From Candidatus Nanoarchaeia archaeon (GTDB taxonomy: Archaea > Nanobdellota > Nanobdellia > SCGC-AAA011-G17 > JAFCDX01): 64,000 nucleotides of DNA. Under the pieces are notes generated by a model. It worked only from the letters and a program-made list of their open reading frames with translations, did not search any database and had not been told where the DNA came from. The position numbers were made by a program, and so were the translations under genes. Shown here in pieces: positions 1,747-29,244 of this stretch. The DNA lies in NCBI GenBank assembly GCA_028716945.1, contig JAQUOT010000001.1:283280-347279 (forward strand), in the 5' to 3' direction. Positions within the stretch are counted from its first letter, which is position 1, and the number at the start of each line of letters is the position of its first letter.

Positions 1747-3369
1747 ATGTTTTGTATGCTTAAAAAGAGGTTTATTGTATTTCTTAATATGTTAATTTTT
1801 ATACCTTTAGTAAATGCTGCGGTTACTAATTCTGCAACTAATATGGTAGGTATGATTGTAAGTACTTTAGAACTGCTATTTAAATTAATTACTGGATTAG
1901 CAAACAAATTAATTGCTCCTGGAACAGGTTTATTGATGACTAATCCTATGGTTGGAAGGGTTTTTTTGTCTGTAATTGCTTCAATAATTCTTTATGATGC
2001 ATTAAAGCAATCTCCTTTCTTAAAAGACCAAGAAGGGGCTTCTAAAAAAGCAGCATTGATTGCTATCTTAATTGGCTTGATAACTGCGATTGGATTACCA
2101 GGAACTTTAATTAGTACTATATTTACAAATGCAGGAACTTTTTTTGGATTTATAATTGCTGCATTGATATTAACTATTTTTAAAGGAGATAATAGAGTAA
2201 GTCATGCTGGAAAATGTGTTGGTTATCTTGCTTTGTTGTGGTCTTTTGGTGCAATCTCTCCTCTATTTGGTACAACTAGTATTGGAGATATTTTAGGAAT
2301 GGTAGTTTCATTCTTCACAGTAGTATCTTTGATAATGGTACTAACTAATTTCTTTAAAATATTTAAAGGAGGAGCTGGAAGCAGTGGAAGTAATTTTAAA
2401 AAGACTATTAGAGATACTGAAAAAATTGAAGCAGGAGCAATAAGCGAATCTAAAAAAGATTACATTGATATTAAAAATGATATATCTATTTTAAAAGGAC
2501 TGGTTGCTGAAATAAACTCACCATTAGAACAGGCTTTTGATTATGCTACTGCTTGGGAAAATTATTTTATTTCTCTTAAAAGGATTCTTGAACAAATAGA
2601 AAAATCAATAGAAGGAGGAAGGACAAATTTCAATGAGGAAAGCAAAAAAGTTCTTGAATCGCTTGTTAATAATTGTGGAACTTTAATTTCTGCTTTAGTA
2701 AGATTGCAGATAGATATAAAACAAGAAATTGAAAGTATAGAACAAAGAATTTTTTCTATAAAAGAAAATTTAGATAAAATTTCAAAAATTGTTAATAGAA
2801 CTTTAGATGATTTGGATATTGATCAAAGAACTTTAGTAAAAATGGATAATAATGCAAAAAGTCTTCCTGATGATATAAAAAGAAATATAATAGGAGAAAT
2901 AGTTGGATTCCAAAAAAGTTTAGCAGACTTAAAAAATAAATTTAAAGCAATTGGTCTACAAAACATTGAAAAAGATTTTAAAGAAAACAATGAAATTTTA
3001 TCTGGAATTAAAAACAAGTTCAATAATATATCGAGTAAAGCAAATGAAATAATAACCAGACTTCAAAAATATTCAAGGAATTTGAACACCATAAAAGAAG
3101 GAAAAGGAACAAAAGATATAATAAACCAAGTTGTAGGAGACAACAATTTATTGATAATAAATATGGGAGAATTAAAAACCCTACTTAAAAACCTTGAAGG
3201 AATATTCACTTCATTATTAACCACATATGAAAAGATAGCTAAAGATACAGAAAATGAAACTAATAATTATAGCTCTCTTGCTTCCCAATATATAAAAGTA
3301 CAAGAAGAGATATTTAAAGAAACCGAGATTATAAATCGGGAATTGGACCTTAGAAAAGGTAGTAAATGA
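1747..3369 (+). CDS. membrane protein paralog A: signal-like N-terminus, multi-TM module, long coiled-coil C-terminal domain
   Basis: 540-aa ORF. Hydrophobic leader ending VNAAV, about 5 TM helices, then ~330 aa of charged heptad-rich sequence. The TM module is identical to the paralog at 3428..4591. Confidence 0.75.
   Translation: MFCMLKKRFIVFLNMLIFIPLVNAAVTNSATNMVGMIVSTLELLFKLITGLANKLIAPGTGLLMTNPMVGRVFLSVIASIILYDALKQSPFLKDQEGASKKAALIAILIGLITAIGLPGTLISTIFTNAGTFFGFIIAALILTIFKGDNRVSHAGKCVGYLALLWSFGAISPLFGTTSIGDILGMVVSFFTVVSLIMVLTNFFKIFKGGAGSSGSNFKKTIRDTEKIEAGAISESKKDYIDIKNDISILKGLVAEINSPLEQAFDYATAWENYFISLKRILEQIEKSIEGGRTNFNEESKKVLESLVNNCGTLISALVRLQIDIKQEIESIEQRIFSIKENLDKISKIVNRTLDDLDIDQRTLVKMDNNAKSLPDDIKRNIIGEIVGFQKSLADLKNKFKAIGLQNIEKDFKENNEILSGIKNKFNNISSKANEIITRLQKYSRNLNTIKEGKGTKDIINQVVGDNNLLIINMGELKTLLKNLEGIFTSLLTTYEKIAKDTENETNNYSSLASQYIKVQEEIFKETEIINRELDLRKGSK
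1917..2315. repeat. 399-bp perfect direct repeat, copy 1 (within paralog A)
   Basis: Base-for-base identical by eye to 3592..3990 (offset 1675). Flanks are only ~85-90% identical upstream and unrelated downstream. Confidence 0.9.
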
Positions 3370-3406: not shown

Positions 3407-3427
3407 CTTTTATTGAGATATTTAATC

Positions 3428-4591
3428 ATGTTTAGTATGTTTAAAAAGAGGCTTGTTGTATTTCTTAATATGTTAATTTTTATACCTTTAGTAAATGCTG
3501 CTGTATCAACAGACAATATGGTTAATACACTCGGAGATACTTTGGGACTTTTATTTGGTCTTGTTAATGGATTAGCAGATAAATTGATTGGTCCTGGAAC
3601 AGGTTTATTGATGACTAATCCTATGGTTGGAAGGGTTTTTTTGTCTGTAATTGCTTCAATAATTCTTTATGATGCATTAAAGCAATCTCCTTTCTTAAAA
3701 GACCAAGAAGGGGCTTCTAAAAAAGCAGCATTGATTGCTATCTTAATTGGCTTGATAACTGCGATTGGATTACCAGGAACTTTAATTAGTACTATATTTA
3801 CAAATGCAGGAACTTTTTTTGGATTTATAATTGCTGCATTGATATTAACTATTTTTAAAGGAGATAATAGAGTAAGTCATGCTGGAAAATGTGTTGGTTA
3901 TCTTGCTTTGTTGTGGTCTTTTGGTGCAATCTCTCCTCTATTTGGTACAACTAGTATTGGAGATATTTTAGGAATGGTAGTTTCATTCTTTACATTAATG
4001 GTTTTAATATTGGCAATAGTTAATTTTGTTAAACTATTTAAAAGATCTGCGGGTTCTACTTCTACTACCTCTTCCGATTCTACATCTCCTGCTTCGTCTA
4101 GTACTCCTGCTCCTACGTCATCTGCCTCGTCTAGTACTCCTACTTCTATATCCCCTGCTACTACGTCACCTGCTCCTGCTACACCCACTCCAAATAAAAA
4201 AGAACATTTGGCTTGGTTAGAAGCAATGAGAATAAAATTTCGTGGAGATATTTGGAACACAATTAATACAACAAATTCTTTGGTTACAAAAAGTACTGTC
4301 ACACTAACAGAAAGGAATGAAGCACTTGCTTTAGTTAGGGGGTCGCTTAAATATGTAACAGATATAAAAAATTATTTGCTTGGATTTGGAGATAATGAAG
4401 TTAAAAATGATATACTTGGACTTGAATGGGTTCTTAGAGATTATATTAAAAAAATAAATAAACTAAAACCAGCTGAGTTTAAAGCAAACAAAACCAACTT
4501 AATAAATGATGGCAACGCCTTGCTAGGAGTAATTAATAAAATAGGTAATAGTATTTATGCTTTAGAAAGAAGAGTGGCTGCAATGCCTTAA
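3428..4591 (+). CDS. membrane protein paralog B: same N-terminal TM module, Ser/Thr/Pro-rich linker, unrelated C-terminal domain
   Basis: Start moved from the TTG at 3413 to the ATG at 3428 by alignment with paralog A (MFSMFKKRL vs MFCMLKKRF) and by promoter spacing. STP-rich tract at 4046..4192. Confidence 0.75.
   Translation: MFSMFKKRLVVFLNMLIFIPLVNAAVSTDNMVNTLGDTLGLLFGLVNGLADKLIGPGTGLLMTNPMVGRVFLSVIASIILYDALKQSPFLKDQEGASKKAALIAILIGLITAIGLPGTLISTIFTNAGTFFGFIIAALILTIFKGDNRVSHAGKCVGYLALLWSFGAISPLFGTTSIGDILGMVVSFFTLMVLILAIVNFVKLFKRSAGSTSTTSSDSTSPASSSTPAPTSSASSSTPTSISPATTSPAPATPTPNKKEHLAWLEAMRIKFRGDIWNTINTTNSLVTKSTVTLTERNEALALVRGSLKYVTDIKNYLLGFGDNEVKNDILGLEWVLRDYIKKINKLKPAEFKANKTNLINDGNALLGVINKIGNSIYALERRVAAMP
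3592..3990. repeat. 399-bp perfect direct repeat, copy 2 (within paralog B)
   Basis: Identical to 1917..2315. Confidence 0.9.
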
Positions 4592-6192: not shown

Positions 6193-8595
6193 ATGGCTAA
6201 GATAAGGTTCTATCCTTTAGATATAGACTATAAATCTGGGATAAGAATATTTGGTAAAACAGAAGATAATAGGAAAATAATTGTTCTAGATCCTTCTCTA
6301 AAACCATATTTCTATGCAATACCTAATGAAAAAGAGGATTTTAACAAACTAAAAGCTAAAATTGAAGCAATTAAACATGAGGATAATTATGTTATCAAAG
6401 CAGAAATTGAAGATAAATTATATTTAGACAATCCTATAAAAACAATTAAAGTTTCTGTAAATAGTTCTGATGCTTTGCCTGTAATAAAGGATATGTTAAA
6501 GGAAATTGGAATTACTAAATTATTAGAATATGATATAAAATTCTATAAAAAATATCTAAGAGATAGAAAAATAACTCCTTTAACTCTTTGTGAAGTTGAA
6601 GGTGATTTAAAACAAAATGAATTTGGAGTAATTGTAGAAGGAAAAGTTTCTGAAGTAGCTCAAGATGAAACTGTTAATCTAAAAGCCCTTGCCTTTGATA
6701 TAGAAGTTTATTCTTTTAATACAGAAGACTCTGAAATTATTTCTTTATCTTGTTATGGAGAAGATTTTAAGAAAGTTATTACCTGGAAAAAGTTTAATCA
6801 GCATGAAGACATAGAATTTGTAAATAATGAAGCTGATTTATTAGAAAGATTTAAGGAAATTTTACGTGAATACAAACCAGACTGCATAATTGGTTATAAT
6901 TCTGATGGATTTGACTTTCCTTTTCTAGTTCAAAGAGCAAGAGACTTAGGAATTCCTTTGGATATGGGATTGGATGGAACACAAGTAAAAATTTCTCGTG
7001 GAATGTATCCTGCTGCAAAAATAAAAGGTATTATTCATCTAGATATTATGCAATTTATTAAGAAAATAATGGCAGGATCTTTAAAATTTGATTCTTACAG
7101 TTTGAATAATGTTGCTTATGAGTTATTAAAAGATAAAAAATTAGATATTGGAATGGATAAACTAGATGATATGTGGTCTAAGGAAGATTTAGAAGATATA
7201 AAACAAATTTGTGAATATAATTTGCATGATTCTAAACTAACTTATGATGTTTATAAAAAAATATTACCTAATTTACAAGAATTAGTAAAATTAATTGGAT
7301 TACCCTTATTTGATATATGTAGGATGTCTTATGGTAAACTAGTTGAGAATTATTTAATAAAATGTGCTCTTGATTTAAATGAATTAATTCCAAATCAGCC
7401 AGGACACGCAGATATTCATGATAGAAGAATGTATACTTACCAAGGGGCTTCTGTAATGGAGCCTGTTCCTGGATTTTACAAAAATATAATTGTATTTGAC
7501 TTCATGAGTTTATATCCTAGTATAATTGTTTCTAAAAATGTCTGTCCTTCTATGCTGAATAAATCAGAAGGTTATGAATCTCCCGAAATAAACGAGCAAG
7601 GAACAATGAAAACTTATTTCTTCAGCAATAAAAAAGAAGCTTTTATTCCCTCTGTGATTAAAGATTTAATTTTAAGAAGAAATAGAGTAAAAGAACTAAT
7701 AAGACAAGAGACAAACCCAGTGCTAGAAGCAAGATCTTATGCATTAAAGACAGTAGCAAATTCTTGTTATGGCTATATGGGATTTTTTGGAGCAAGATGG
7801 TATTGCAGAGAGTGTGCTTCTTCTATTACTGCCTGGGCAAGAGAATATATTAAAGAAACTATAACTAAATTTAAGAAAGAAGGATTTAATGTTTTATATT
7901 CTGATACAGACTCTGTTGCAGTAGAATTACAAAACAAAACCAAAGATGAAGCTTTTGCTGTTGTAGAAGAAATTAATCGTGAATTACCAAGTTTAATGGA
8001 GCTTGAGTTTGATGATTTTTATCCTTTAGGAATTTTTGTCTCTAAAAAAACAACAATGCAGGGTGCAAAGAAAAAATATGCCTTGATTGATGAATGTGGA
8101 AATATAAAATTAACTGGATTTGAAACTGTTAGGCGTGATTGGAGTAAAATTGCTAGAGAAACACAAAAACAAGTTCTAACTTTAATCTTAGAAAAAGGAA
8201 ATCCTACAAAAGCACTAGAATATACAAAAAATATACTTAAAAAAATAAAAGACAAAGAAGTTTTATTAAAAGATCTAATAATTCAAACACAATTAAAGAA
8301 AAATTTAGAAGATTATGAGCAAATAGGACCGCATGTTGCTGTTGCTAGAAAAATGCAGGAACAAGGTAAAAAAATATCTATTGGAAGTCCTATCTGGTTT
8401 ATTGTTACAGAAGGAAAAGGAATGATAAGAGACAGATCTAAAATACCCTCTGAATGCAAAGAAAAAGAATATGATACAGAGTATTATATAAATAACCAAG
8501 TTCTTCCTTGTGTAGAAAAGATATTTGAGGTATTTGGAGTGAAAAAGGAACAAATATTAATACAAGAACAATCTACTTTACAGGATTTCAAATGA
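6193..8595 (+). CDS. polB: family-B DNA polymerase (PolB)
   Basis: 800 aa. Exo I FDIEV, Exo II YNSDGFDFPFL, Exo III YNLHDSKLTYD, motif A DFMSLYPSII, motif B KTVANSCYGY, motif C YSDTDSV. The length leaves no room for an intein. Confidence 0.95.
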   Translation: MAKIRFYPLDIDYKSGIRIFGKTEDNRKIIVLDPSLKPYFYAIPNEKEDFNKLKAKIEAIKHEDNYVIKAEIEDKLYLDNPIKTIKVSVNSSDALPVIKDMLKEIGITKLLEYDIKFYKKYLRDRKITPLTLCEVEGDLKQNEFGVIVEGKVSEVAQDETVNLKALAFDIEVYSFNTEDSEIISLSCYGEDFKKVITWKKFNQHEDIEFVNNEADLLERFKEILREYKPDCIIGYNSDGFDFPFLVQRARDLGIPLDMGLDGTQVKISRGMYPAAKIKGIIHLDIMQFIKKIMAGSLKFDSYSLNNVAYELLKDKKLDIGMDKLDDMWSKEDLEDIKQICEYNLHDSKLTYDVYKKILPNLQELVKLIGLPLFDICRMSYGKLVENYLIKCALDLNELIPNQPGHADIHDRRMYTYQGASVMEPVPGFYKNIIVFDFMSLYPSIIVSKNVCPSMLNKSEGYESPEINEQGTMKTYFFSNKKEAFIPSVIKDLILRRNRVKELIRQETNPVLEARSYALKTVANSCYGYMGFFGARWYCRECASSITAWAREYIKETITKFKKEGFNVLYSDTDSVAVELQNKTKDEAFAVVEEINRELPSLMELEFDDFYPLGIFVSKKTTMQGAKKKYALIDECGNIKLTGFETVRRDWSKIARETQKQVLTLILEKGNPTKALEYTKNILKKIKDKEVLLKDLIIQTQLKKNLEDYEQIGPHVAVARKMQEQGKKISIGSPIWFIVTEGKGMIRDRSKIPSECKEKEYDTEYYINNQVLPCVEKIFEVFGVKKEQILIQEQSTLQDFK

Positions 8596-9146
8596 AAAAA
8601 GTTTATATTATCCATGGTTGGGGTGGAAATCCAAAAGAAGGTTGGTTTCCTTGGTTAAAAAAAGAGTTAGAATCAAAAAATTATAAAGTTTTCATACCAG
8701 AAATGCCTAATACTGAAGAACCAGAGATAAAAGAGTGGGTTTCTTATTTAAAAAAATTAGTAAAACCAGATAATGAAACTTATTTTGTAGGTCATTCTAT
8801 TGGATGTCAAACTATTATGAGATATTTAGAATCTCTTCCAGAGAAAATAAAAGTTGGTAAATGTATCTTTGTTGCTGGTTGGTTTAATTTAAATTCTCTT
8901 TCAGAAGAAGAAATTGAAACTGCTAAACCTTGGTTAGAAACACCAATTGATTATAAGAAAGTTTTATCACATACCAATAAAATTACTGCAATATTTTCTG
9001 ATAATGACGATTATGTTCCTTTAACAGATTCAGAAATATTTAAAAACAAATTAAAAACTAAAATAATTATAGAGCAGGGTAAAGGTCACTTTTCTGGTGA
9101 AGATGGAATAAAAAAACTAGAAATAGTATTAAATGAATTCAAATAG
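8592..9146 (+). CDS. alpha/beta serine hydrolase, YdeN/RBBP9-like
   Basis: 184 aa. IIHGWGG start, nucleophile elbow GHSIG, later SDNDDYVP and GKGHF, consistent with a Ser-Asp-His triad. ATGA overlap with the polB stop. Confidence 0.7.
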   Translation: MKKVYIIHGWGGNPKEGWFPWLKKELESKNYKVFIPEMPNTEEPEIKEWVSYLKKLVKPDNETYFVGHSIGCQTIMRYLESLPEKIKVGKCIFVAGWFNLNSLSEEEIETAKPWLETPIDYKKVLSHTNKITAIFSDNDDYVPLTDSEIFKNKLKTKIIIEQGKGHFSGEDGIKKLEIVLNEFK

Positions 9147-9243
9147 GTGACCACTTTTTCTTATTTTTTATGTTTTGTGGACACCCATTAATAGAAAGAT
9201 TTAAATATAAGAATATACTCTTTAGGTATAAGTATATATCAAA

Positions 9244-9513
9244 ATGGTACAATTATTAGAAAAACAACAACTAGTACATTCTCCTAATTTAGATACTGTT
9301 CTAATGGTAGAAGATATTTTAAAAAAAGCTGGAGAAGTAATAACTTTGGCAGAACTAAAAAGAAAACTTCCAAGAAAAGTTATGCATAATACTCTTATAC
9401 AAATATTAGATTATTTACAAATGAGCGGAAAAATAATAATTGGAACAAAAGGAATTCTTTGGATATTTACCGAAAGAAAAGAATTAAATGATTTAATTAA
9501 AAAAAGGAACTGA
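9244..9513 (+). CDS. small hypothetical protein (winged-helix-like)
   Basis: 89-aa ORF with an upstream TATA-like element. Weak wHTH-like pattern only. Confidence 0.45.
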   Translation: MVQLLEKQQLVHSPNLDTVLMVEDILKKAGEVITLAELKRKLPRKVMHNTLIQILDYLQMSGKIIIGTKGILWIFTERKELNDLIKKRN

Positions 9514-9543
9514 AGTATGAATCAAGATTTCAAATAATTATTT

Positions 9544-9759
9544 TTAAAAACCTAATTTCTTTTTAGCTTCTTCAAATGAAACTACTTTTCCTTCGCGTAT
9601 ATTTTTACGAGCCTTAACAATTGCTTTTTTAGTTTCTTCTGATAATTCCATATCTTTTTCTAATAAACCCCAAATAATATCTTCGTAAGTATCTTCTTTG
9701 AACACTTTTCTTTTATTCAATTCTTTTAGAATATCACTAGATAATTTAATTTGTTTCAT
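9544..9759 (-). CDS. small hypothetical protein (antitoxin-like helical protein)
   Basis: 71-aa charged helical ORF directly abutting the upstream wHTH gene (stop 9760 / start 9759). Confidence 0.45.
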   Translation of the reverse strand: MKQIKLSSDILKELNKRKVFKEDTYEDIIWGLLEKDMELSEETKKAIVKARKNIREGKVVSFEEAKKKLGF

Positions 9760-10071
9760 TTAATTTTTAACAACAATTTCTTGTTCTAAACCATTTATTA
9801 AATTCCAATCTAATTTTATTAATTGTTGAACTGCTGGATTTTTAGTATTTAATTTGAAAAGATCTGATTTTCCTACTCTTCTTGTTTTTATTACAATTCT
9901 ATTTTTTTCTAATTTTTCCCAAAAAGTTTGTAATGTAGAATAACTTACTCCAGAATTTTTTGCTATTTCTGTTAAAGGATAATCAAATAACTGGAAGGTT
10001 ATTAAAAAATCTAATACTTTTATAATTGGATTATTACCAAATACTTCCACAAACACAGTTTCAGTTTTCAT
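9760..10071 (-). CDS. winged-helix transcriptional regulator
   Basis: 103 aa. HTH segment LTEIAKNSGVSYSTLQTFWEKLEKNRIV followed by a wing (KTRRVGKSDLFKLN). Confidence 0.6.
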   Translation of the reverse strand: MKTETVFVEVFGNNPIIKVLDFLITFQLFDYPLTEIAKNSGVSYSTLQTFWEKLEKNRIVIKTRRVGKSDLFKLNTKNPAVQQLIKLDWNLINGLEQEIVVKN

Positions 10072-10093
10072 ATACTAACACACACCCACATAC

Positions 10094-10106
10094 TTATAAA
10101 TGTTTC
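10094..10106 (-). promoter_or_regulatory. BRE/TATA promoter for 9760..10071
   Basis: Minus strand reads GAAACATTTATAA, ~23 nt upstream of the ATG at 10071. Confidence 0.45.
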
Positions 10107-10133
10107 TGTTTGTGTTTTTATATTACAATATTA

Positions 10134-10147
10134 GAAACATTTAAATA
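10134..10147 (+). promoter_or_regulatory. BRE/TATA promoter (GAAACATTTAAATA)
   Basis: Matches the window-wide promoter consensus. About 29 nt upstream of the ATG at 10169. Confidence 0.5.
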
Positions 10148-10168
10148 TTCTTAAAATATGTGAAAAGT

Positions 10169-10441
10169 ATGGAATTTAATGAAGATCAAATAAAGGCCAC
10201 TATTTTGTATGACTTAAGAAGAAAGAAAGTAATTGGTGGAGTTCATGTTCCATTTGATACACTTAAAAAGGGTTTTCCTCCACATTTAAAAGGAGAAGTT
10301 GATACTATAGCAAAAGATTTAATAAAAAAGGGTTTGTTAATACCAAAACCGGCTTCTTATGGATTACAAGTTTCTATAAATAAAGAGAAAATGAGAGAAA
10401 TAGAAGAATTTATTAAGAAAGTATTAGGATCTGAATTTTAA
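10169..10441 (+). CDS. hypothetical protein
   Basis: The ORF-track start is a GTG at 10160. The ATG at 10169 fits the promoter spacing better. The gene abuts map. Confidence 0.5.
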   Translation: MEFNEDQIKATILYDLRRKKVIGGVHVPFDTLKKGFPPHLKGEVDTIAKDLIKKGLLIPKPASYGLQVSINKEKMREIEEFIKKVLGSEF

Positions 10442-11326
10442 ATGAACCAAGATTTCATAAAAGCAGGAAAAATTGCTTCACAAGCACGTGAGTATGGAAG
10501 AAGTTTGATTAAAGAAAATGCTTCTGTTTTGGAAATTGCTGAAAAAATTGAAGCTAAAATAAGAAGTCTTGGTGGAGAATTGTCTTTTCCTTGTGATGTT
10601 TCTATTAATTTCATTGCTGCTCATGATTCTCCTAAAATAAAAGATGAAAGAACCTTGAAAAAAGGGGATATTGTCAAAATTGATCTTGGAGCACAGGTAA
10701 ATGGCTGTGTTACAGATACGGCCTGTACTGTAGAAGTTAATAGTACTAAACATAAAGACTTGATTAAAGCCTCTGAAGAAGCTCTTGATAATGCTATTAA
10801 GTTATTTACTCCTAGGACAAAAGTCTGTGAAATAGGTAAAGTTATTGAAACTACAATTAAAAAATATAATTTAAGCCCTATTAGGAATCTTGCTGGTCAT
10901 GGTGTTGGTGTTTATGAGATACATACAGGAATTAACATTCCTAATTATGATAATAACAATCAAACTGTTCTTGAAAAAGGAATGGTCTTTGCTTGTGAAC
11001 CTTTTACAACTTATGGAGATGGAATTGTTATGGATGGGAAAAATTCTGAAGTTTATTCTCTTGAAGATCCTGGTAAACCAATTAGAGATTCTGGTTCTAG
11101 AGAAGTTTTAAAGTATATTAAAGAAAAGTATAAGACTTTACCTTTTTCTAAAAGAGATTTGAGTAAAAAATTTAATATATTAAAATTAACTTTGGCTTTG
11201 AATAATTTAGAAAGAGAAGGAATAATACAGCAGTATAATATATTGGTTGAAAGGTCAAAAGGTTTGGTTGCTCAGACAGAACATACTATAATTGTTGATG
11301 AAAAACCTGTTGTTGTTACAAAGTGA
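10442..11326 (+). CDS. map: methionine aminopeptidase, type 2 (archaeal)
   Basis: 294 aa. Pita-bread metal-ligand context (FIAAHDSP, KIDLGAQVNGCVTDTA, NLAGHGVG, FACEPF, AQTEHT) plus the type-2 helical insertion. Confidence 0.9.
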   Translation: MNQDFIKAGKIASQAREYGRSLIKENASVLEIAEKIEAKIRSLGGELSFPCDVSINFIAAHDSPKIKDERTLKKGDIVKIDLGAQVNGCVTDTACTVEVNSTKHKDLIKASEEALDNAIKLFTPRTKVCEIGKVIETTIKKYNLSPIRNLAGHGVGVYEIHTGINIPNYDNNNQTVLEKGMVFACEPFTTYGDGIVMDGKNSEVYSLEDPGKPIRDSGSREVLKYIKEKYKTLPFSKRDLSKKFNILKLTLALNNLEREGIIQQYNILVERSKGLVAQTEHTIIVDEKPVVVTK

Positions 11327-11369
11327 AGTTGTTAGCGTTTGGAACTTTTAGAAAAAGTGTCTCAAAAGG
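11323..11369. repeat. imperfect direct repeat DR-A (~47 bp)
   Basis: GTGAAGTTGTTAGCGTTTGGAACTTTTAGAAAAAGTGTCTCAAAAGG, ~80% identical to 12671..12718. Begins at the map stop codon. Confidence 0.7.
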
Positions 11370-11409
11370 TTGTGAAAAGGTTTATATTCTACAAAAACAT
11401 ATTTAAAAT

Positions 11410-11631
11410 ATGGTAGATAAAGTTGAAGAATTTTGGAAAAAGTATGTTAAAGCTGACTATTTAGAACGCACGAAGATAATAGAAAAATTAACAAAAGGCA
11501 AATTATTTAATTTGTTTACGAGTAATAGTAAAGTTCCAAAAAAGATTAGAAAACATGCTTTAGCACTTAGTTTACAGTCATATTTTGATGATTTAATAGA
11601 CTATTTGGAATCTAAAAAATTTAAGCGTTAA
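11410..11631 (+). CDS. hypothetical protein
   Basis: 73-aa ORF with a TATA-like element upstream. No family recognised. Confidence 0.4.
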   Translation: MVDKVEEFWKKYVKADYLERTKIIEKLTKGKLFNLFTSNSKVPKKIRKHALALSLQSYFDDLIDYLESKKFKR

Positions 11632-22229: not shown

Positions 22230-24449
22230 CTATTCTTTTATCTTAACAATTAAGGATTCTGCATGCTTGCATTTAGGATATTTTGGACAAGCCAAGAAAT
22301 AACCATAAAATCCTTTTCTAACTATTAATGGAGACTTGCAATTAGGACATTCTTTTTTTAATTTTCCAGATTCATAATCTTTTACTATTTTTTCAGTTTC
22401 TTTATCTGCTTGTCTTGTTTCACATTCAGGATTAATACACATTATCTGAGGTCTTTTAGCTTTTTTAATTATCATAACCATTGGGAATCCACATTTAACA
22501 CAAGTTTGTTTTGCTGGTTTGATAAATCCAGACGGTAATGAAAATGTAGTTTTACAATCAGGATATTGATTACAAGCTACAAAATTACCAAATTTACCTT
22601 TTCTTAATTCTAAGTTTCCTTTTTTACATACATGACAAGGACCTAAGGTAGATTCTTCAATTCTTGTTTCTATATTTGCTTCTGCTAGTAATTTTCCAAT
22701 TTTTAATTCATTTTCCTTGAAATGATCTAATATTTTAGTTAAAGCTTTTTTAGCTCCATCAAGAACTTTTTCTTTTTTAATTTTTCCTTCACGAATTTCT
22801 TCCATTTCTTCTTCAAAAGTTCTGGTTAAATTCTCATCTAGTATTTCAGGACAATATTTTTCAAGAGTTTCTACTGTTTTCATTCCTAAATTAGTAACTT
22901 CAATAGATTTTTCTTTAGCATAATTTCTATCATACAAAGTAGAGATAATTTCTGCTCTTGTAGCTTTAGTTCCTAGATTTCTTTTTTCTAATTCTTTAAT
23001 CAAAGAAGCTTCTGAGTATCTATTTGGTGGAGTTGTTTCCTTATCATAGATTTTAGTTTTAGGAGTTTTAATTTCATCTTTTTCCTTAGCCAAAGGCAAT
23101 TCTTCTTCTTTTAATTTAACAAATTTACCATATAATTCATGCCATCCTTTTACTTTTGTAGTAGTTCCTGATAAACTAAACAATTCATCATTGCAATTTA
23201 TTTCATAAGTTACTGATTCTCTGATAGCAGGATCTCCAAAACAAACAAAGAATCTTCTTACAATCAATTCATATACATTTTCAGCTCTTGGATCTAATTT
23301 TCCAGGCAATTCTCCTGTTGGAAATATTGCTGGGTGAGCAGGATCATCTTTTTTACCTTCTGTAGGTTTTAATTCTTTTTTAGCTAATAAAAATGCAACT
23401 TCTGTTGGAAATCTTTTCTTTAAATTCTTTAAAATTTCTTCATAACCGATTGATTTTGGTAATTTTTGTGAAGAAGTTCTAGGATAAGAAATATATGAAC
23501 CCGTATAAAGATTCTGAGCAATTTCTAAAGTTGTTTTTGGACTTAAACCAAGAGTTTTATACGCTTCTAATTGTAAACTTGTCAAATCAAAAGGTAATAA
23601 TGGTTCTTGTTTAATTTCTCTTTTAGTTATACTTGAAATAAATGCTTCTTTTCCTTTAGTTTTTTTAATTATTTCTTCTGCGTCTTTCTTATTTTTGAAA
23701 ATTCCTTTTTTATGAAATGCTTCTATTAAAGTTGTTTTTAATTTACCACAAAGAGATACTTCCCAATAAGGTTCTGGCTTGAATTTTTTAATTTCTAGTT
23801 CTCTTTGATATAATAAATATAAAGCAGGTCCTTGAACTCTACCAGAAGACATTATTTTAAATGATTTTGTTGCATTTTTTATAGAAAGGGTTAATGCTCT
23901 CGACAAATTTATACCCCACAGCCAGTCAAGCGAATGACGTGCCTCTCCTGCTTCTGCTAAATTAAAATCTAGATGTGGTTTTGCTTCTTCATATGCTTTT
24001 ACTAAATCTTGTTTTGTTAAAGTTGAGAAATAAGCTCTTTTTGTATCGTCTTTTTCAAAAATAAATCTATTAACGTTTTTAAAAATAACTTCTCCTTCTG
24101 TATCTACATCACACATGTTTACAAAAGTATCTGCTTCTTTTCCTAATTTTTTTAATAAATCAATATAAGGTTTTGTAAATGCTGCTAATTTAGAAGATTT
24201 GTATATAGGCACCCATTCATAACTAAATACCGGATAAGTCCAGGCTTTTTTATCTTTTTCATACAATCCAAATAAATGACCTACTGCAGAACAAACAAAT
24301 ATTTTTTTATTTTTGTGAGTAATTTCATAATAAGGAACTTTTTTATAAATATGTTTTTCTGGTTTTCCATCTGACAAAGCTTCTGCTATTTTTGAAGCTG
24401 CATCTGGTTTTTCTGCTAGTATTAATTCTGTCATAAGAGACAATTTCAA
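22230..24449 (-). CDS. topA: type IA DNA topoisomerase (TopA / Topo III-like) with C-terminal zinc ribbons
   Basis: 739 aa. TOPRIM start LILAEKPDAA, active-site region ISYPRTSS, and several CxxC...CxxC ribbons at the C-terminus. Confidence 0.9.
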   Translation of the reverse strand: MKLSLMTELILAEKPDAASKIAEALSDGKPEKHIYKKVPYYEITHKNKKIFVCSAVGHLFGLYEKDKKAWTYPVFSYEWVPIYKSSKLAAFTKPYIDLLKKLGKEADTFVNMCDVDTEGEVIFKNVNRFIFEKDDTKRAYFSTLTKQDLVKAYEEAKPHLDFNLAEAGEARHSLDWLWGINLSRALTLSIKNATKSFKIMSSGRVQGPALYLLYQRELEIKKFKPEPYWEVSLCGKLKTTLIEAFHKKGIFKNKKDAEEIIKKTKGKEAFISSITKREIKQEPLLPFDLTSLQLEAYKTLGLSPKTTLEIAQNLYTGSYISYPRTSSQKLPKSIGYEEILKNLKKRFPTEVAFLLAKKELKPTEGKKDDPAHPAIFPTGELPGKLDPRAENVYELIVRRFFVCFGDPAIRESVTYEINCNDELFSLSGTTTKVKGWHELYGKFVKLKEEELPLAKEKDEIKTPKTKIYDKETTPPNRYSEASLIKELEKRNLGTKATRAEIISTLYDRNYAKEKSIEVTNLGMKTVETLEKYCPEILDENLTRTFEEEMEEIREGKIKKEKVLDGAKKALTKILDHFKENELKIGKLLAEANIETRIEESTLGPCHVCKKGNLELRKGKFGNFVACNQYPDCKTTFSLPSGFIKPAKQTCVKCGFPMVMIIKKAKRPQIMCINPECETRQADKETEKIVKDYESGKLKKECPNCKSPLIVRKGFYGYFLACPKYPKCKHAESLIVKIKE

Positions 24450-24556
24450 AAGAAAACTATTTAAAGCTTTTCAAAACCGCTTATTTTTCATATATTTCAA
24501 AAAAGCTATTATTTTTTAGATAAATGTTTAAAAAGAGACTAATCATTTAATATTCA

Positions 24557-24790
24557 ATGATAGAAGAAAATACATACCTTTATTTTTATCAATATACTAG
24601 TGATACAAATTTTAGATGGGTAAATCTTCTTTCTGGAAAATATGCAAAACTTTCTAATGTAAAATTAAATGAATTAGAAGGAATAATTTTTACTGAAAAA
24701 GAAATAACTGGAACGGATTTAAGGTTTCCAATAACTCAAGAAGACGAAATATTAAAAAAATATGTTGGACGAAAAATTGAATTTAATTAA
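24557..24790 (+). CDS. hypothetical protein
   Basis: 77-aa ORF. No family recognised. Confidence 0.35.
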   Translation: MIEENTYLYFYQYTSDTNFRWVNLLSGKYAKLSNVKLNELEGIIFTEKEITGTDLRFPITQEDEILKKYVGRKIEFN

Positions 24791-24791
24791 A

Positions 24792-25631
24792 CTATCTAAA
24801 CTTATTAAGTTCTTCCAGTCTTTTTTCTGCTCCTATGGATTGAGAAAACATTTTCCAAAATATTTTTGACATCCACTCTGCCCATTCCTTATCTTTGATA
24901 GTATAAAATATAAATAATCTTTTATCAAGCTCTTTAACTTTTCCCGTTGGTTCTATTATTTCTTTTATATCAATTATTTCATTGTCTATTATTGTTGCTC
25001 TTAAAGGTTGTTTTCTGTTTCTTATTTCAATTAGTTGTTTTTTATATTTAAAATTCAAAGAAAGAAGCTCTTCTACATTGTCTCTTCCAGAAATATCTAT
25101 TCTACAAATAACTTTTATAGGAATTCCTTTTTTAACTAATTGTTCTATAGTATCAAAAATTCTTCTTGTTTTAGTTTTTGTGTGTATGAACGAAAGATTT
25201 CCAGAAAAAAATAGAACTTGTTTTTTTGCTGCTATTAGCATATCTAAAAATCTATCTAAATTTCCTGCATTATCCTCATTTATTGCTTTTTTTGAATATA
25301 ATTTTTTATTTTTATTTGAAACGTGCTGATATATATCAAAAGCAGAAAAATCCTCTTTTTCCTTGCCTTGCATTATCTCTTGTTCTAATTGTTCTTGAAA
25401 AATAGAATTGCTTATCTTTTCTACAGAACTCCAATATACTATTTTTAATGCCCCTCTTGTATCTTTTCTAAATATCCTTGTTGTTATGGTTCCATAATTC
25501 TTTTCTATTTCTTGTACATATCTATCTGCAGTTCTCCAGTTTTTATTGAGTAATTGTGCTATTTCTTGTATAGACCTTGGTTTAGAATAAACAAAATCTT
25601 CTATTTTTTTAATTTCTTCTGAACTAAGCAT
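24792..25631 (-). CDS. TrmB-like winged-helix regulator (N-terminal wHTH plus C-terminal domain)
   Basis: 279 aa. N-terminal KPRSIQEIAQLLNKNWRTADRYVQEIE helix-turn-helix. Divergent from the radical-SAM operon. Confidence 0.5.
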   Translation of the reverse strand: MLSSEEIKKIEDFVYSKPRSIQEIAQLLNKNWRTADRYVQEIEKNYGTITTRIFRKDTRGALKIVYWSSVEKISNSIFQEQLEQEIMQGKEKEDFSAFDIYQHVSNKNKKLYSKKAINEDNAGNLDRFLDMLIAAKKQVLFFSGNLSFIHTKTKTRRIFDTIEQLVKKGIPIKVICRIDISGRDNVEELLSLNFKYKKQLIEIRNRKQPLRATIIDNEIIDIKEIIEPTGKVKELDKRLFIFYTIKDKEWAEWMSKIFWKMFSQSIGAEKRLEELNKFR

Positions 25632-25734
25632 AATTTATGAATATTTTATTATTTTTAAGGGTTTCTATTTATACAACACTATGGACAACTTTTGTACAAA
25701 AACAAGTATATAGATTACAAGTCCATTATATAGT

Positions 25735-26019
25735 ATGACAAAGAACGAAGGCGAATGCAGAGTTTGTGGAACTAAATATGTAGTCAGTGAGCATAAAGTT
25801 CAAAGTGATTCTCATTTTTTTTATGAAGAATATTTTAGGTGCCCTTCTTGTAATTATAACCCGGAATTAGATAATAATATTAGAGAAATTTTATTTGAAA
25901 AAATAAGATTGAATATTACCATAGGACCAAAAAAACCTATACTTTCTTTCAATAAACAAGAACTAGAAGGATTGATTCTTGAAGAAATTAAAAAGTGTTG
26001 GCCGGAGGTGAAAAAATAA
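25735..26019 (+). CDS. small zinc-ribbon protein
   Basis: 94 aa with CRVC...x25...CPSC. First gene of the overlapping five-gene operon. Confidence 0.5.
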   Translation: MTKNEGECRVCGTKYVVSEHKVQSDSHFFYEEYFRCPSCNYNPELDNNIREILFEKIRLNITIGPKKPILSFNKQELEGLILEEIKKCWPEVKK

Positions 26020-26528
26020 AATATGTAATCGCAGGTGGTTCGTGTTCTGGAAAAACAACATTAATTAATGAATTAAATAAAAAAGGATATTTTGTATTAG
26101 GAGAAGTAGCAAGGGAAGTTATAAAAGAGAGAGGATTTACAGATTCTTCGATAGGAAATTTTGAATTTGAAAAAGAAATATTATTAAGACAAATTAAACG
26201 AGAAGAAGGATTAGATAATAATAAAATTATATTCTTAGATAGAGGTTCTATAGACACTTTAGCCTATGTTGAAAAAATATTTGGAAGCATACCTGAAGAA
26301 TTTGAATATTATGCAAGTCTTTGTAAATATGATAAAATATTAATCCCAGATTTGCTGCCTTTTGTATTTGATGGGGAAAGAATAGAAAAAAGTAAAGATG
26401 AAGCAGTAATTCTACACCAAAAAATATGGAACCAATATGAAAAGCATGGATATTCTCCAATAAGAATTCCTGTTCTTAAAACAATAGAAGAAAGAGTAAA
26501 TTATGTTCTGGAGCAAATAAAATGTTAG
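25995..26528 (+). CDS. AAA_28 / NadR-like P-loop NTPase (putative nucleoside/nucleotide kinase)
   Basis: IAGGSCSGKTTLINEL Walker A directly followed by GYFVLGEVAREVI, then FLDRGSIDTLAY and DGERIEKSKDEA, the pattern of the AAA_28 family. The start is uncertain (GTG 25995 / TTG 25998). A GGAGGTGA SD lies at 26004..26011. Confidence 0.72.
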   Translation: MLAGGEKIKYVIAGGSCSGKTTLINELNKKGYFVLGEVAREVIKERGFTDSSIGNFEFEKEILLRQIKREEGLDNNKIIFLDRGSIDTLAYVEKIFGSIPEEFEYYASLCKYDKILIPDLLPFVFDGERIEKSKDEAVILHQKIWNQYEKHGYSPIRIPVLKTIEERVNYVLEQIKC

Positions 26529-27004
26529 AAATAGAAGCAAAAATAAAAATATCTGAAGAAGAAAAAGAAAATTTAATTAAAAAATTAGGTAAACCCAAAT
26601 TTTACAAGCAAGAGAATGTTTTCTTTGGTTTAGAAGATAAGATAATAAGACATAGAACTTTAGATAACGGAATTTTATTAACTATAAAAGGAAAAAATGA
26701 ACCTTGTGATTTCAATAAAAGAGAAGAAACTGAAATAGAACTACCTTATAATCATGAAGTAATAAAACTTTTATTTGAAGTAATTGGTTTAAAGAAATTA
26801 TTAACTTATGAAAAACAAAGAGCAAATTATAAAATAAATAGGTGTACTGTCTCCTTAGATATTCTTACAATAGGAAATTATGTAGAAATTGAAGGTCAAG
26901 AAGAAGATATCTCAAAAACAATAAACTTTCTAGGATTAGAAAAATATCCAATAGAAAAAAGATCTTATTTTGAAATGTTAGGAGGTGAAAATGGCTTGCA
27001 TTGA
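26522..27004 (+). CDS. CYTH-domain protein (CyaB/ThTPase-type triphosphate tunnel metalloenzyme)
   Basis: 160 aa starting MLEIEAKIKI (the ExExK signature), with later RHR, TIKG, ETEIEL and YVEIEG beta-strand acidic/basic pairs. Confidence 0.75.
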   Translation: MLEIEAKIKISEEEKENLIKKLGKPKFYKQENVFFGLEDKIIRHRTLDNGILLTIKGKNEPCDFNKREETEIELPYNHEVIKLLFEVIGLKKLLTYEKQRANYKINRCTVSLDILTIGNYVEIEGQEEDISKTINFLGLEKYPIEKRSYFEMLGGENGLH

Positions 27005-27857
27005 AAAGATTTACAGTGTATCTGCCTTAACTGGAAATGGAAGTTGTAATGGAAATTGTGGTTTTTGTGCTGGAAAATATTTAAGGCCTGATGCAAAAGA
27101 AAATAAACTTTATTATAAAAATTTAGAAGCAGCAATAAAACTTTCAGCTCGTTATGGTGGATGGTCTTTATCCTTAACTTCAAGCGGAGAACCTACTTGT
27201 GATCCAAATGCATTAACAAGAGCTTTAGAAGTTTATGATAAATGCACAAAGCAAGGAGCTTATTTCCCAAATGTAAATTTATTCACAAATGGAATTCTGT
27301 TAGGAGATAAAGAATTCTGTAATCAATACTTAGATACTTGGAAAAATCTTGGATTAAATAATATAGCTGTTTCTATTCATGATGCAGATGAAAAAGAACA
27401 AGCCAAAGTTTATGGATTAAAAAGTTATCCTAATTTAGAAAATATTGTTGAAAATATAGAAGAACATGGGTTAGGAGTAAGAGCTACATTATTACTAAGA
27501 AAAAATGGAGTTGATAATTCAAAAAAATATGAACAAGCAGTTAAAACTCTTATAAAAAAAGGAATTCATAATATTACTTCTTGGCCTGTTGGAAACCCAG
27601 ATAATACTAGGAATGAATATACTCCATCTAGATTAAATATATTTGGAATAAAAAGATGGTTGTATAAAAACGCAAAATTATGCCATGGCCATGTTTGGGG
27701 TGGAGGAGTTTTTGATTATCATGGAAATATTATAAGATATACTAATTATGTTACAAAGCATGATCCTAAAAAAGACTTTGTAAGGCAACTAGTTGTATTT
27801 CAAGACGGAACAGTAGCATATTCATGGATAAAGGAAGGTGCTTTATGTATGAAGTAA
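26991..27857 (+). CDS. radical SAM enzyme, paralog 1 (MoaA/viperin-like core)
   Basis: CNGNCGFC (CX3CX2C) at residues ~20-27, SSGEPT (GGEP-like SAM motif), FTNG, AVSIHD. GGAGGTGA SD lies just upstream of the ATG at 26991. Confidence 0.8.
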   Translation: MACIEKIYSVSALTGNGSCNGNCGFCAGKYLRPDAKENKLYYKNLEAAIKLSARYGGWSLSLTSSGEPTCDPNALTRALEVYDKCTKQGAYFPNVNLFTNGILLGDKEFCNQYLDTWKNLGLNNIAVSIHDADEKEQAKVYGLKSYPNLENIVENIEEHGLGVRATLLLRKNGVDNSKKYEQAVKTLIKKGIHNITSWPVGNPDNTRNEYTPSRLNIFGIKRWLYKNAKLCHGHVWGGGVFDYHGNIIRYTNYVTKHDPKKDFVRQLVVFQDGTVAYSWIKEGALCMK

Positions 27858-28645
27858 AAAGTTTGGGGATATTTGTAGGTCAAGGCAAATGTAATGCTCA
27901 TTGTGCACATTGCGCAGGAGTTGTTCATAGAAAATATGCTCCTAAAAAAGATGGAATCATAGATAAAGAATTAATTTATAAAACTCTTAAATATTGTTAT
28001 AGTAAAGGAGCAAGATCCTTATCGATAACCAGCAGTGGAGAACCAACTTTATCTCCTTTAGCAATTACAAAAGCGTTAAATTTAGTTTATAATTTAAAAA
28101 AAGAAAATATAAATTATACTTGGATAAATCTTTATTCAAATGGAATTAGAATTGGAGAAGATAAAGAATTTTGCAAGAAATATTTATCTTTATGGAAAGA
28201 TTCTGGATTAAAAACTATTTATATAACAGTTCACAATATTAATGAAAAAAAGAATGCTAAATTATATAATATTAAAAAATATCCTCCTCTAGAAAGAATT
28301 GTTTCTAGAATTCATAATGAAAACATATTAACAAGAGCAAATTTAGTTCTTAGCAAAAACAATATAGATACTTCTGAAAAATTTGTCTCTTTTGTTAAAG
28401 ATTTAAGAAAAATTGGTTTTGATCATATTTCTGCATGGTCAATTAGAAATTTAGAAGACAAAGTTGATTTAGAATTATCTCCAAATAAAGAAGAATTAGA
28501 TAAAATGGAATATTGGATAGAAAAAAATAAAGATCCTAAATGTAGAATAAGATTATTGAGAGAAAATAGCAGGATTTTATATGAATCTGGAAAAAAACTA
28601 ACTTTATTTCCCGACGGAAAATTAACAAATTCGTGGTGTAATTAA
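27845..28645 (+). CDS. radical SAM enzyme, paralog 2
   Basis: CNAHCAHC (CX3CX2C), SSGEPT, YSNG, ITVHN. Collinear with paralog 1 to the C-terminus (F.DG....SW). GGAAGGTG SD precedes the ATG at 27845, which overlaps the end of paralog 1. Confidence 0.8.
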   Translation: MYEVKSLGIFVGQGKCNAHCAHCAGVVHRKYAPKKDGIIDKELIYKTLKYCYSKGARSLSITSSGEPTLSPLAITKALNLVYNLKKENINYTWINLYSNGIRIGEDKEFCKKYLSLWKDSGLKTIYITVHNINEKKNAKLYNIKKYPPLERIVSRIHNENILTRANLVLSKNNIDTSEKFVSFVKDLRKIGFDHISAWSIRNLEDKVDLELSPNKEELDKMEYWIEKNKDPKCRIRLLRENSRILYESGKKLTLFPDGKLTNSWCN

Positions 28646-29244
28646 ATTGTAATTATTTTTCCTTTTCTTCCTACGTTAATTACTTTTGTTTTACCAAGTT
28701 TTTCTTCTAAACCCTCTGCTTCATGTACATGGGAACACAATAATAAATCTGGTTTAAAAATATCAACTGCTTTTTTTACTCCTTTACTTCCAGGAAATAT
28801 ATTTGTAAATTTCTCCATAACAGATTCAGAAGGATGAACATGAGTAACCATAATTTTCTTCTTCAAATTTTTAACACCATCATAACCTTTTTTTAAAGTA
28901 TTAAAAATTTCAGATTCAGATAGCTGACTAAGACCAATATTTGCTCCACCACAACCAAACAAACCAACATCTTTACATTTAATAAAATAACCATGTAAAT
29001 TTGTAACATCATATAATTCTGCAAGAAAATCTGCTGTAGCAAAAGTTTCATGATTTCCTGGAATTAAAATAACTTTTAATTTTTTCTTAACAAATGGACC
29101 AATTAAATTCTCTGTAGATCTTTCAGCATAAGTCAAATCTCCGCATAAAACAACTAAATCTACTTTTTCTTTAACTGCTCTCTTAGCTAGCTCTTCAACT
29201 AGTTTAGTATCTCCATGTATGTCGCCTGCTGCAAGAATTTTCAT
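28642..29244 (-). CDS. calcineurin-like metallophosphoesterase (MJ0936/YfcE-type)
   Basis: GDIHGD, CGDLT, GNHE, THVHP and SHVHE motifs in canonical order. Confidence 0.8.
   Translation of the reverse strand: MKILAAGDIHGDTKLVEELAKRAVKEKVDLVVLCGDLTYAERSTENLIGPFVKKKLKVILIPGNHETFATADFLAELYDVTNLHGYFIKCKDVGLFGCGGANIGLSQLSESEIFNTLKKGYDGVKNLKKKIMVTHVHPSESVMEKFTNIFPGSKGVKKAVDIFKPDLLLCSHVHEAEGLEEKLGKTKVINVGRKGKIITI

Follow-up and report, generated by a model that had tools for sequence, protein, structure and literature searches.

A TrmB-like regulator, a putative operator and a highly conserved radical-SAM enzyme: the core of a candidate nucleotide-salvage cassette in DPANN archaea

Results

A divergent regulator faces five overlapping genes

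We analyzed a 64-kb segment of a DPANN archaeal chromosome, hereafter the window, in whose positions all coordinates are given unless a locus is named. The locus under study contains five plus-strand open reading frames (ORFs), two of which, rSAM-A and rSAM-B, encode radical S-adenosylmethionine (SAM) enzymes. A regulator gene, Reg279, is divergent to them, and a convergent phosphoesterase gene closes the locus (Table 1). Also encoded in the window are PolB, PolD, CDC48, LonB, FEN1, several aminoacyl-tRNA synthetases, and TopoI.

A first-pass annotation, made from the sequence alone, had read the five ORFs as one operon with end-to-start overlaps, strong internal Shine-Dalgarno (SD) sequences, and products assignable by motif. 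The positions of all five, each overlapping the next end to start, were confirmed, and our analysis supports a single regulated operon-like unit. Among the SD sequences, GGAGGTGA indeed precedes rSAM-A and GGAAGGTG precedes rSAM-B, but the GGAGGTGA within the ZnR/AAA_28 overlap sits downstream of the GTG start that had been assigned to AAA_28. As to the products, Pfam recovered AAA_28, CYTH, and two Radical_SAM domains, whereas the Zn-ribbon matches of ZnR were all below threshold.

Table 1. Features of the locus, with one example of a protein family that flanks rSAM-A elsewhere
Feature	Position	Strand	Size and remarks
TrmB-like regulator Reg279, winged helix + PLD-like domain	24792..25631	-	279 aa; divergent to the operon
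Conserved putative operator	25671..25702	+	TACAACAC box and inverted repeat GACAA-n-TTTGTAC; includes palindrome 25691-25700
TATA-like GTATATAG	25706-25713	+	Conserved columns of the ungapped spacer alignment
Second TACAAGTC box	25716-25723	+	Conserved columns of the ungapped spacer alignment
ZnR, small CxxC...CxxC ORF	25735-26019	+	94 aa
AAA_28, NadR-type P-loop nucleoside/nucleotide kinase-like	25995-26528	+	177 aa; PF13521
CYTH / triphosphate-tunnel metalloenzyme	26522-27004	+	160 aa; PF01928
rSAM-A, radical-SAM enzyme	26991-27857	+	288 aa; PF04055
rSAM-B, paralog of rSAM-A, directly downstream	27845-28645	+	266 aa; PF04055
YfcE-like metallophosphoesterase, convergent, closes the locus	28642..29244	-	PF00149, 1.5e-17
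~170-aa protein family, example	L026 7435-8001

The conserved core is the regulator, its putative operator, and rSAM-A

The window genes were mapped onto 38 loci from species-representative genomes, several metagenome contexts, and ~15 viral contigs; archaeal gene counts refer to 31 non-redundant loci. rSAM-A was present in 30 of these, and the TrmB-like regulator adjoined the operon divergently in 28. The other genes were found less often: rSAM-B in 19, AAA_28 in 14, CYTH in 12, the phosphoesterase in 8, NrdR in 2, and ZnR in 1. The series AAA_28-CYTH-rSAM-A-rSAM-B occurred in 3 of the 31 loci, namely the window (together with its sister contig L007), L025, and L026. rSAM-A was flanked by either the TrmB-like regulator or NrdR in 29 of its 30 archaeal loci and often had no partner other than its regulator, as in AR13. 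rSAM-B, whose orthologs share ~60% identity, followed rSAM-A in 18 of the 30 archaeal loci, in one of eight loci from bacteria of the candidate phyla radiation (CPR), and in several viral loci. Thus, the conserved core consists of the TrmB-like regulator, the operator, and rSAM-A, with AAA_28, CYTH, and rSAM-B as optional additions, and the earlier idea of five genes forming one conserved system does not hold.

The search with rSAM-A returned 603 homolog clusters, the best 120 of which were 77-100% identical to it. Identity is ~80% across DPANN archaea and 62-76% in CPR bacteria (Dojkabacteria, Paceibacterota, Moraniibacteriota, Collierbacteria, and others) and in the ~15 viral contigs. In a comparison of 46 sequences from archaea, bacteria, and viruses, at least 98% invariance was seen at 75 of the 288 positions, with invariant stretches at the two termini (MACIEKIYSVS... 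and ...YSWIxEGALCMK) and in the segment CHGHVWGGGV.DY. In addition, rSAM-A sits in a fixed TopoI/SerRS synteny, and it is this synteny, together with the ~80% identity across genomes, that gives the gene its housekeeping character. The Dojkabacteria copy (76% identity) nests among DPANN sequences, and viral copies group with those of CPR bacteria (loci concerned: L023, L035, L043, and L045-L053). This pattern implies that the gene has recently moved between archaea, bacteria, and viruses. In collections of annotated phages and plasmids, rSAM-A was not found. A further copy lies on a contig labeled as a Pseudomonadota metagenome-assembled genome (L037, 29-5681), between the genes for a terminase large subunit and a Mu-type portal, in a GC-rich context unlike that of all other copies; this contig is probably a phage or prophage.

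ZnR is a strain-specific insertion

The sister contig L007 is 93-96% identical to the window and precisely lacks the stretch 25739-26023, which corresponds to the ZnR ORF. Neither tblastn nor jackhmmer detected ZnR homologs in 48 other loci. We therefore rejected ZnR as a component of the system; judged from this indel, it is a strain-specific insertion outside the conserved set. The indel also bears on the kinase gene. In L007, its ATG lies at the promoter, and the homologous codon of the window reads ATA (26016), right after GGAGGTGA. Because the ancestral ATG is replaced in this way, the start of AAA_28 is uncertain and could be either GTG 25995 or ATA 26016 behind the SD sequence.

The two contigs also differ elsewhere: the orf77 region (24437-24772) is likewise missing from L007, which carries ~1.2 kb of extra sequence between rSAM-B and the phosphoesterase gene (L007 9664-10883). 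Two large ORFs of the window, 1747-3369 (540 aa) and 3413-4591 (392 aa), had no Pfam family at E<=1e-4.

Reg279 is TrmB-like and faces a conserved putative operator

The AlphaFold2 (AF2) model of Reg279 (mean predicted local distance difference test score [pLDDT] 86.5) had TrmBL2 (5bpd/5bpi, E 7e-10) and TrmB (3qph) as its top Foldseek matches, both over the full length, and nucleases of the phospholipase D (PLD) fold matched its C-terminal domain. The model predicts a winged helix-turn-helix (HTH) joined to a PLD-like effector domain, as in the TrmB family. This structural comparison supports the first-pass call of a divergent TrmB-like regulator. At the sequence level, Pfam gave weak HTH and PLDc_2 matches only, and none to TrmB. 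All 1257 homologs of Reg279 are annotated as "hypothetical." Thus, the protein resembles TrmB and TrmBL2 in its winged helix and PLD-like fold (full-length Foldseek E ~1e-9), its divergent arrangement, and its palindromic operator, but differs from them in lacking a Pfam TrmB match and in the genes under its control, which here appear to encode nucleotide enzymes. TrmB proteins characterized so far sense sugars.

The spacers of 21 divergent loci could be aligned without a single gap (consensus TaCAACaCTatgGACAAatttTGtacAGaAA..tgTATata.a.TACAAgTCtat....aa.tATG), and the first ATG occupied one fixed alignment column irrespective of which gene leads. The 10-nt palindrome TTTGTACAAA, which the first-pass annotation had singled out, is present; it is the version found here of an inverted repeat that is conserved within a functional-looking operator. 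The TATA-like element and the second box downstream of it would, by their sequence and position, belong to the promoter. A position weight matrix (PWM) of the operator scored 39 bits at its site in the window as compared to 9 bits for the runner-up, and it also recovered the site in loci outside the training set. In L030, it revealed a second copy immediately 5' of rSAM-A. The operator was retained at 32-34 bits in regulator loci without rSAM-A. Further operator sites, sought across the 64-kb window to define a regulon, were not found. Given the conservation of the operator and the fold of the regulator, Reg279 probably binds this element.

In two loci (L166 4849-6463 and L167 1068-2682), a pair of tandem genes for GGDEF-domain proteins adjoins the TrmB-like regulator, within DPANN-type synteny (TopoI). 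GGDEF proteins are uncommon in archaea.

rSAM-A falls outside the characterized radical-SAM families

rSAM-A and rSAM-B matched PF04055 with 47.6 and 42.9 bits (2.7e-12 and 7.5e-11; cut-off 29.5) and are thus members of the radical-SAM superfamily. They are genuine paralogs (38% identity, E 1e-49). The cluster cysteines of rSAM-A in the N-terminal CX3CX2C motif (C19, C23, and C26) are invariant. The first-pass annotation had noted neither a SPASM motif nor extra cysteine clusters. The former is indeed absent; however, rSAM-A carries four further essentially invariant cysteines, C3, C110, C231, and C286.

The AF2 model of rSAM-A (pLDDT 79, core >90) shows a generic (beta/alpha)6 radical-SAM barrel. 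Its closest folds were MoaA, SkfB, HydE, viperin, BlsE, and anSME, with TM scores of 0.5-0.65 at ~15% identity. The top match was MoaA (E 3e-10, TM ~0.6), with viperins at TM ~0.53. Searches with Foldseek against the Protein Data Bank (PDB) and a viral library gave generic radical-SAM neighbors only, and a PDB sequence search with the radical-SAM proteins retrieved no related solved structure. Because the nearest folds (MoaA, viperin, BlsE, and DesII) act on nucleotides or small molecules, similar chemistry is plausible for rSAM-A.

Beyond the generic Radical_SAM model, no curated family of NCBIfam, Pfam, or PADLOC passed its cut-off for either protein. The MoaA equivalog models reached 25-36 bits against cut-offs of 231-325, the extra cysteines are dispersed, and no molybdenum cofactor (Moco) genes recur in the loci. 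Models of NrdG and PflA had no match among the window proteins at E<=0.01, the weak matches being confined to some members of the wider family. Literature searches found no description of the rSAM-A family. The earlier statement that the locus corresponds to no described pathway is therefore supported, and so is the novelty of rSAM-A, since we looked for membership of a characterized housekeeping subfamily and found none. Compared with MoaA, which is both the best structural match and the best, though weak, hidden Markov model (HMM) match, rSAM-A lacks the C-terminal CX2CX13C motif and nearby Moco genes and is shorter (288 versus ~330 aa). MoaA is a GTP 3',8-cyclase that acts on a nucleoside triphosphate, and its additional cysteines hold a second cluster.

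We then considered the idea, put forward in the first-pass annotation, that the kinase, CYTH, and the two radical-SAM enzymes form a viperin-like antiviral or signaling system that makes a chain-terminating or signaling nucleotide. Prokaryotic viperins (pVips) are known to associate with kinases. Like them, rSAM-A has a small radical-SAM barrel whose N terminus carries CX3CX2C, is encoded next to a kinase, and plausibly has a nucleotide substrate, and viperins are among its structural neighbors. The matches were weak, with 19.7 and 22.4 bits for the two radical-SAM proteins to the viperin model NF038283 (cut-off 180) and 24 bits for rSAM-A to the PADLOC pVip model, which had none to rSAM-B. 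PADLOC was also blank for the kinase and CYTH, and MoaA, SkfB, and HydE were structurally equal to viperin or closer. Furthermore, rSAM-A is set apart from pVips by a C-terminal segment that is invariant and unique to it and by the four additional invariant cysteines, as well as by its slow evolution, its regulator and operator, and its link to NrdR (see below). Defense genes are typically patchy, variable, and located in defense islands. In contrast, rSAM-A retains ~80% identity over hundreds of genomes in fixed housekeeping synteny with a dedicated regulator, often with no other partner, is paired elsewhere with NrdR, dCTP deaminase, or deoxynucleoside kinase (dNK) genes, and is carried by phages within replication modules. 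We thus regard a viperin-like role as highly improbable.

The kinase and the CYTH protein, fused in two loci, are probable partners

The AAA_28 protein covered the whole PF13521 profile (2.4e-29, 103 bits; cut-off 27), and its match to NadR-like proteins encoded in NAD operons lay in their kinase half. It is not a full NadR, as it scored 34.7 bits against a cut-off of 341 with TIGR01526, aligned through the C-terminal kinase part alone, and has no nicotinamide mononucleotide adenylyltransferase (NMNAT) domain. The CYTH protein matched PF01928 (3.2e-11, 43.8 bits; cut-off 23.2) and carries the ExExK motif in its N terminus, MLEIEAKIK. Its closest PDB relative was the Sulfolobus triphosphatase Saci_0718 (E 1.8e-8), while the score for class IV adenylate cyclase CyaB (TIGR00318) remained at 46.4 bits, below the cut-off of 57.95.

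In L009 (875-2026) and L010 (6842-7993), AAA_28 and CYTH are fused into one protein of 383 aa. This "Rosetta-stone" arrangement suggests that the two adjacent proteins of the window work together. Pairs of a P-loop kinase and a triphosphate-tunnel enzyme are known, such as plant TTM1/2. The pair described here differs from those in having a kinase of the NadR/AAA_28 rather than the uridine-kinase-like type and in being embedded in a radical-SAM operon. The phosphoesterase recurs at the equivalent position in 8 archaeal loci and in the regulator-only locus L166, although its functional link to the locus is uncertain.

rSAM-A is associated with genes of deoxynucleotide metabolism

The first-pass annotation had placed the locus in a nucleotide-related context, and the survey of rSAM-A neighborhoods supports this. 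NrdR is a dATP/ATP-sensing repressor of ribonucleotide reductase (RNR) genes. A gene for NrdR (Zn_ribbon_NrdR and ATP-cone domains) adjoined rSAM-A in all eight CPR loci, mostly divergently, and in the archaeal loci L001 and L020 the gene order was NrdR-CYTH-rSAM-A-rSAM-B. NrdR-box cores were found in six of the eight CPR spacers, as compared to ~0.3 expected from shuffles, and lay at the NrdR-proximal edge. For this search, the strict 16-mer consensus (<=5 mismatches) was too stringent, and the 10-nt core alone was informative. It is this adjacency, together with the box cores, that ties rSAM-A to the supply of deoxynucleoside triphosphates (dNTPs) in our interpretation.

The optional genes point in the same direction. 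In L008 and L013, the regulated operon comprises a Tmk/dNK-like kinase, a third rSAM paralog, a dCTP-deaminase-like gene (DCD; PF22769, 1e-36 to 1e-38), and then rSAM-A, which in L008 is followed by rSAM-B. Two loci that were reached from regulator homologs, not via rSAM-A, retain the operator intact but have no rSAM-A. One of them (L165) contains AAA_28, an unknown gene, and a dNK-family deoxynucleoside kinase; the other (L166) contains unknown genes, AAA_28, and the same closing phosphoesterase. Across loci, the same operon slot is filled by three different types of P-loop kinase. A family of ~170-aa proteins (motifs DYSLAxDFxIEKR, GYDGGY, and YPxFYF) directly flanks rSAM-A in L014, L017, L024, L025, L026, and L029 and had no Pfam or PDB relative.

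Viral copies showed a similar association. In L053 (IMGVR_UViG_3300033074_001413, 6328-11414), rSAM-A, rSAM-B, and a 222-aa ORF split a phage family-B DNA polymerase gene into an N-terminal and a C-terminal part. Other viral neighbors included Pol III alpha, an HD hydrolase directly before rSAM-A, Nudix (twice), NADAR (twice), PurA, and IMPDH/GuaC, while some copies were found near tRNA-related genes (Tpt1, a CCA-adding-type nucleotidyltransferase, and PTH2). A relative with 46% identity is flanked by genes for a HIT hydrolase and for a dNTPase-like HD protein, with HAD hydrolases and PurA next to them. The reading of the locus as a nucleotide cassette draws on the DCD-like and Tmk/dNK-like genes of L008 and L013, the dNK of L165, the phage copies in replication modules, and this relative.

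Canonical RNR genes were found neither within ±8 kb of any rSAM-A copy nor in the window. rSAM-A resembles the members of NrdR-controlled nrd operons in its position beside NrdR, with NrdR-box-like palindromes in the spacer, and in its co-occurrence with dCTP deaminase and (deoxy)nucleotide kinases. However, it shares homology neither with any RNR class nor with NrdG, and the window copy lies under a TrmB-like regulator instead of NrdR.

These neighborhoods also bear on another alternative, in which rSAM-A is a housekeeping enzyme acting on a macromolecule or cofactor, such as a tRNA, rRNA, or DNA modifier, an activase of a non-canonical glycyl-radical enzyme (NrdD), or a MoaA-like cofactor enzyme, with the nucleotide-related neighbors being coincidental. 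Such extreme conservation is typically seen in enzymes that have macromolecular partners, the NrdR link would fit an RNR activase, and some members of the wider family showed weak matches to NrdG2 or pyruvate formate-lyase (PFL) activase. The tRNA-related genes near some viral copies and the top structural match to MoaA could be read in the same way. Against it, no gene for NrdD or another glycyl-radical enzyme, Moco gene, or RNA-modification partner recurred within ±8 kb in ~50 loci, and the curated activase, MoaA, and RNA-modifier models all remained far under their cut-offs. Moreover, the recurrent partners are small-molecule nucleotide enzymes. We consider this alternative improbable. An RNR activase was rejected as the leading model, as neither NrdD nor any other glycyl-radical enzyme was found near any rSAM-A copy. 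To read the invariant HVWGGGVFDY loop of rSAM-A as glycyl-radical-like would be purely speculative.

A sister radical-SAM family resides in NAD(P) operons

The wider family comprised 276 representative clusters with full-length homology to rSAM-A at E<=1e-10. In this exhaustive representative search, rSAM-A proper collapsed into a few 50% clusters, and beyond it were ~250 clusters of ~290-aa proteins with 27-34% identity, aligned over residues 6-286. A metagenome scan yielded 80 such loci (the wider-family loci are L062-L141, L054, and L163), and the phage and plasmid collections gave two unannotated replicon matches. In most of 74 loci, this sister family was found in NrtR-controlled NAD(P) operons. 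A HisC-like pyridoxal phosphate (PLP) protein was encoded immediately downstream in 35 loci, and the other partners were NrtR (17 loci), NadE (15), NAD kinase (13), PncA (12), PncB (11), NadA (9), NadD/M (9), NadR (7), and PnuC (4). The NADK-like partner proved to be a genuine homolog of NAD kinase. A relative from Ralstonia adjoins NadM-Nudix.

This raises the possibility that the rSAM-A locus serves pyridine-nucleotide metabolism (NAD, nicotinamide riboside, or ADP-ribose), with rSAM-A keeping the chemistry of the sister family, AAA_28 acting as a nicotinamide-riboside kinase, and CYTH and the phosphoesterase processing NAD-derived phosphates. Besides the NAD-operon context of the sister family and the match of the window kinase to the kinase half of NadR, which together make a pyridine-nucleotide substrate a serious alternative, the two families have the C-terminal motifs D242, G245, R265, G273, and W279 in common and both associate with NadR-type AAA_28 kinase domains. 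NADAR, Nudix, and Tpt1 genes near viral rSAM-A copies would also fit. NADAR is, however, common in large phages generally (PMC9503650). Furthermore, the clade of the A, B, and third paralogs and the NAD-operon family form separate branches of the tree, and HMMs of all ten partner clusters of the NAD-operon family, run against the ~50 loci of the rSAM-A clade, detected the AAA_28 domain only. NAD enzymes and the HisC-like partner are thus found in none of these loci, where rSAM-A is paired instead with NrdR, DCD, Tmk/dNK-like kinases, and DNA polymerases. We therefore view a pyridine-nucleotide function as the main rival, serious but on the whole unlikely. In itself, the NAD-operon context argues for a substrate of the nucleotide type throughout the family.

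The uncharacterized pair of a radical-SAM enzyme and a HisC-like PLP protein in NrtR-controlled NAD(P) operons, present on dozens of metagenome contigs, is a separate lead. It may correspond to nrtX-nrtY, genes listed without explanation in a 2008 paper on the NrtR regulon (PMC2330246), although we could not establish a link between the two. In the papers on NARP3 and on NAD-ADPr in viruses the family is not involved.

Discussion

Our observations are best accommodated by a housekeeping, TrmB-like-regulated nucleoside/nucleotide-salvage cassette, whose core enzyme would act by radical chemistry on a nucleoside or nucleotide in a step tied to dNTP supply. We hold this to be probable, with due reserve. 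In a host that appears to be a Woesearchaeota-type DPANN archaeon, the TrmB-like regulator would bind an operator overlapping the divergent promoters and thereby control a variable gene set. rSAM-A would generate a 5'-deoxyadenosyl radical and with it modify a free nucleoside or nucleotide, probably at the ribose, and so feed or balance the deoxynucleotide pool. Its cysteines C3, C110, C231, and C286 would either serve as a reductant or coordinate a second cluster. How far the substrate or product is phosphorylated would be set by the kinase and CYTH, and a second step, which is dispensable, would fall to rSAM-B. The nucleotide nature of the substrate, the connection to dNTP supply, and each chemical step are predictions drawn from gene associations and sequence comparison.

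Several points weigh against this interpretation. The next-closest family (25-31% identity over the full length) lies in NAD(P) biosynthesis and salvage operons (NrtR, NadE, PncA/B, NadA, NadD/M, NadR, PnuC, and NAD kinase), and the kinase of the window is of the NadR nicotinamide-riboside-kinase type. The NrdR, DCD, and dNK genes are absent from the window itself, and the adjacency of NrdR to rSAM-A could result from NrdR autoregulation alone, since the box cores lie at the edge of the spacer nearest NrdR. Finally, the rSAM-A model is poor exactly at its most conserved part, residues 231-259.

A bolder version of the nucleotide-salvage interpretation is that rSAM-A produces deoxyribonucleosides or deoxyribonucleotides by radical-SAM chemistry independently of RNR, or else catalyzes a different essential step toward DNA precursors (for example, folate-independent thymidylate synthesis), in DPANN archaea, CPR bacteria, and phages alike. 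Such a route would explain the pairing with NrdR, dCTP deaminase, and kinases of the deoxynucleoside or thymidylate type, the invariant extra cysteines (as a reductant), and the extreme conservation, but we consider it a long shot.

DPANN archaea and CPR bacteria have minimal, salvage-dependent genomes, and their supply of DNA precursors and cofactors is poorly understood. Although no function has been assigned to rSAM-A, few proteins of these groups are conserved as strongly. It is common to archaea, bacteria, and viruses and appears to be wired to NrdR in bacteria and to a dedicated TrmB-like regulator in archaea. The regulator-operator pair offers a clean, testable archaeal regulon. Should rSAM-A act on nucleotides, it would add a new enzymatic step to the metabolism of (deoxy)nucleotides or NAD. 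Should its products be deoxynucleotides, the rule that their de novo synthesis always runs through RNR would no longer hold.

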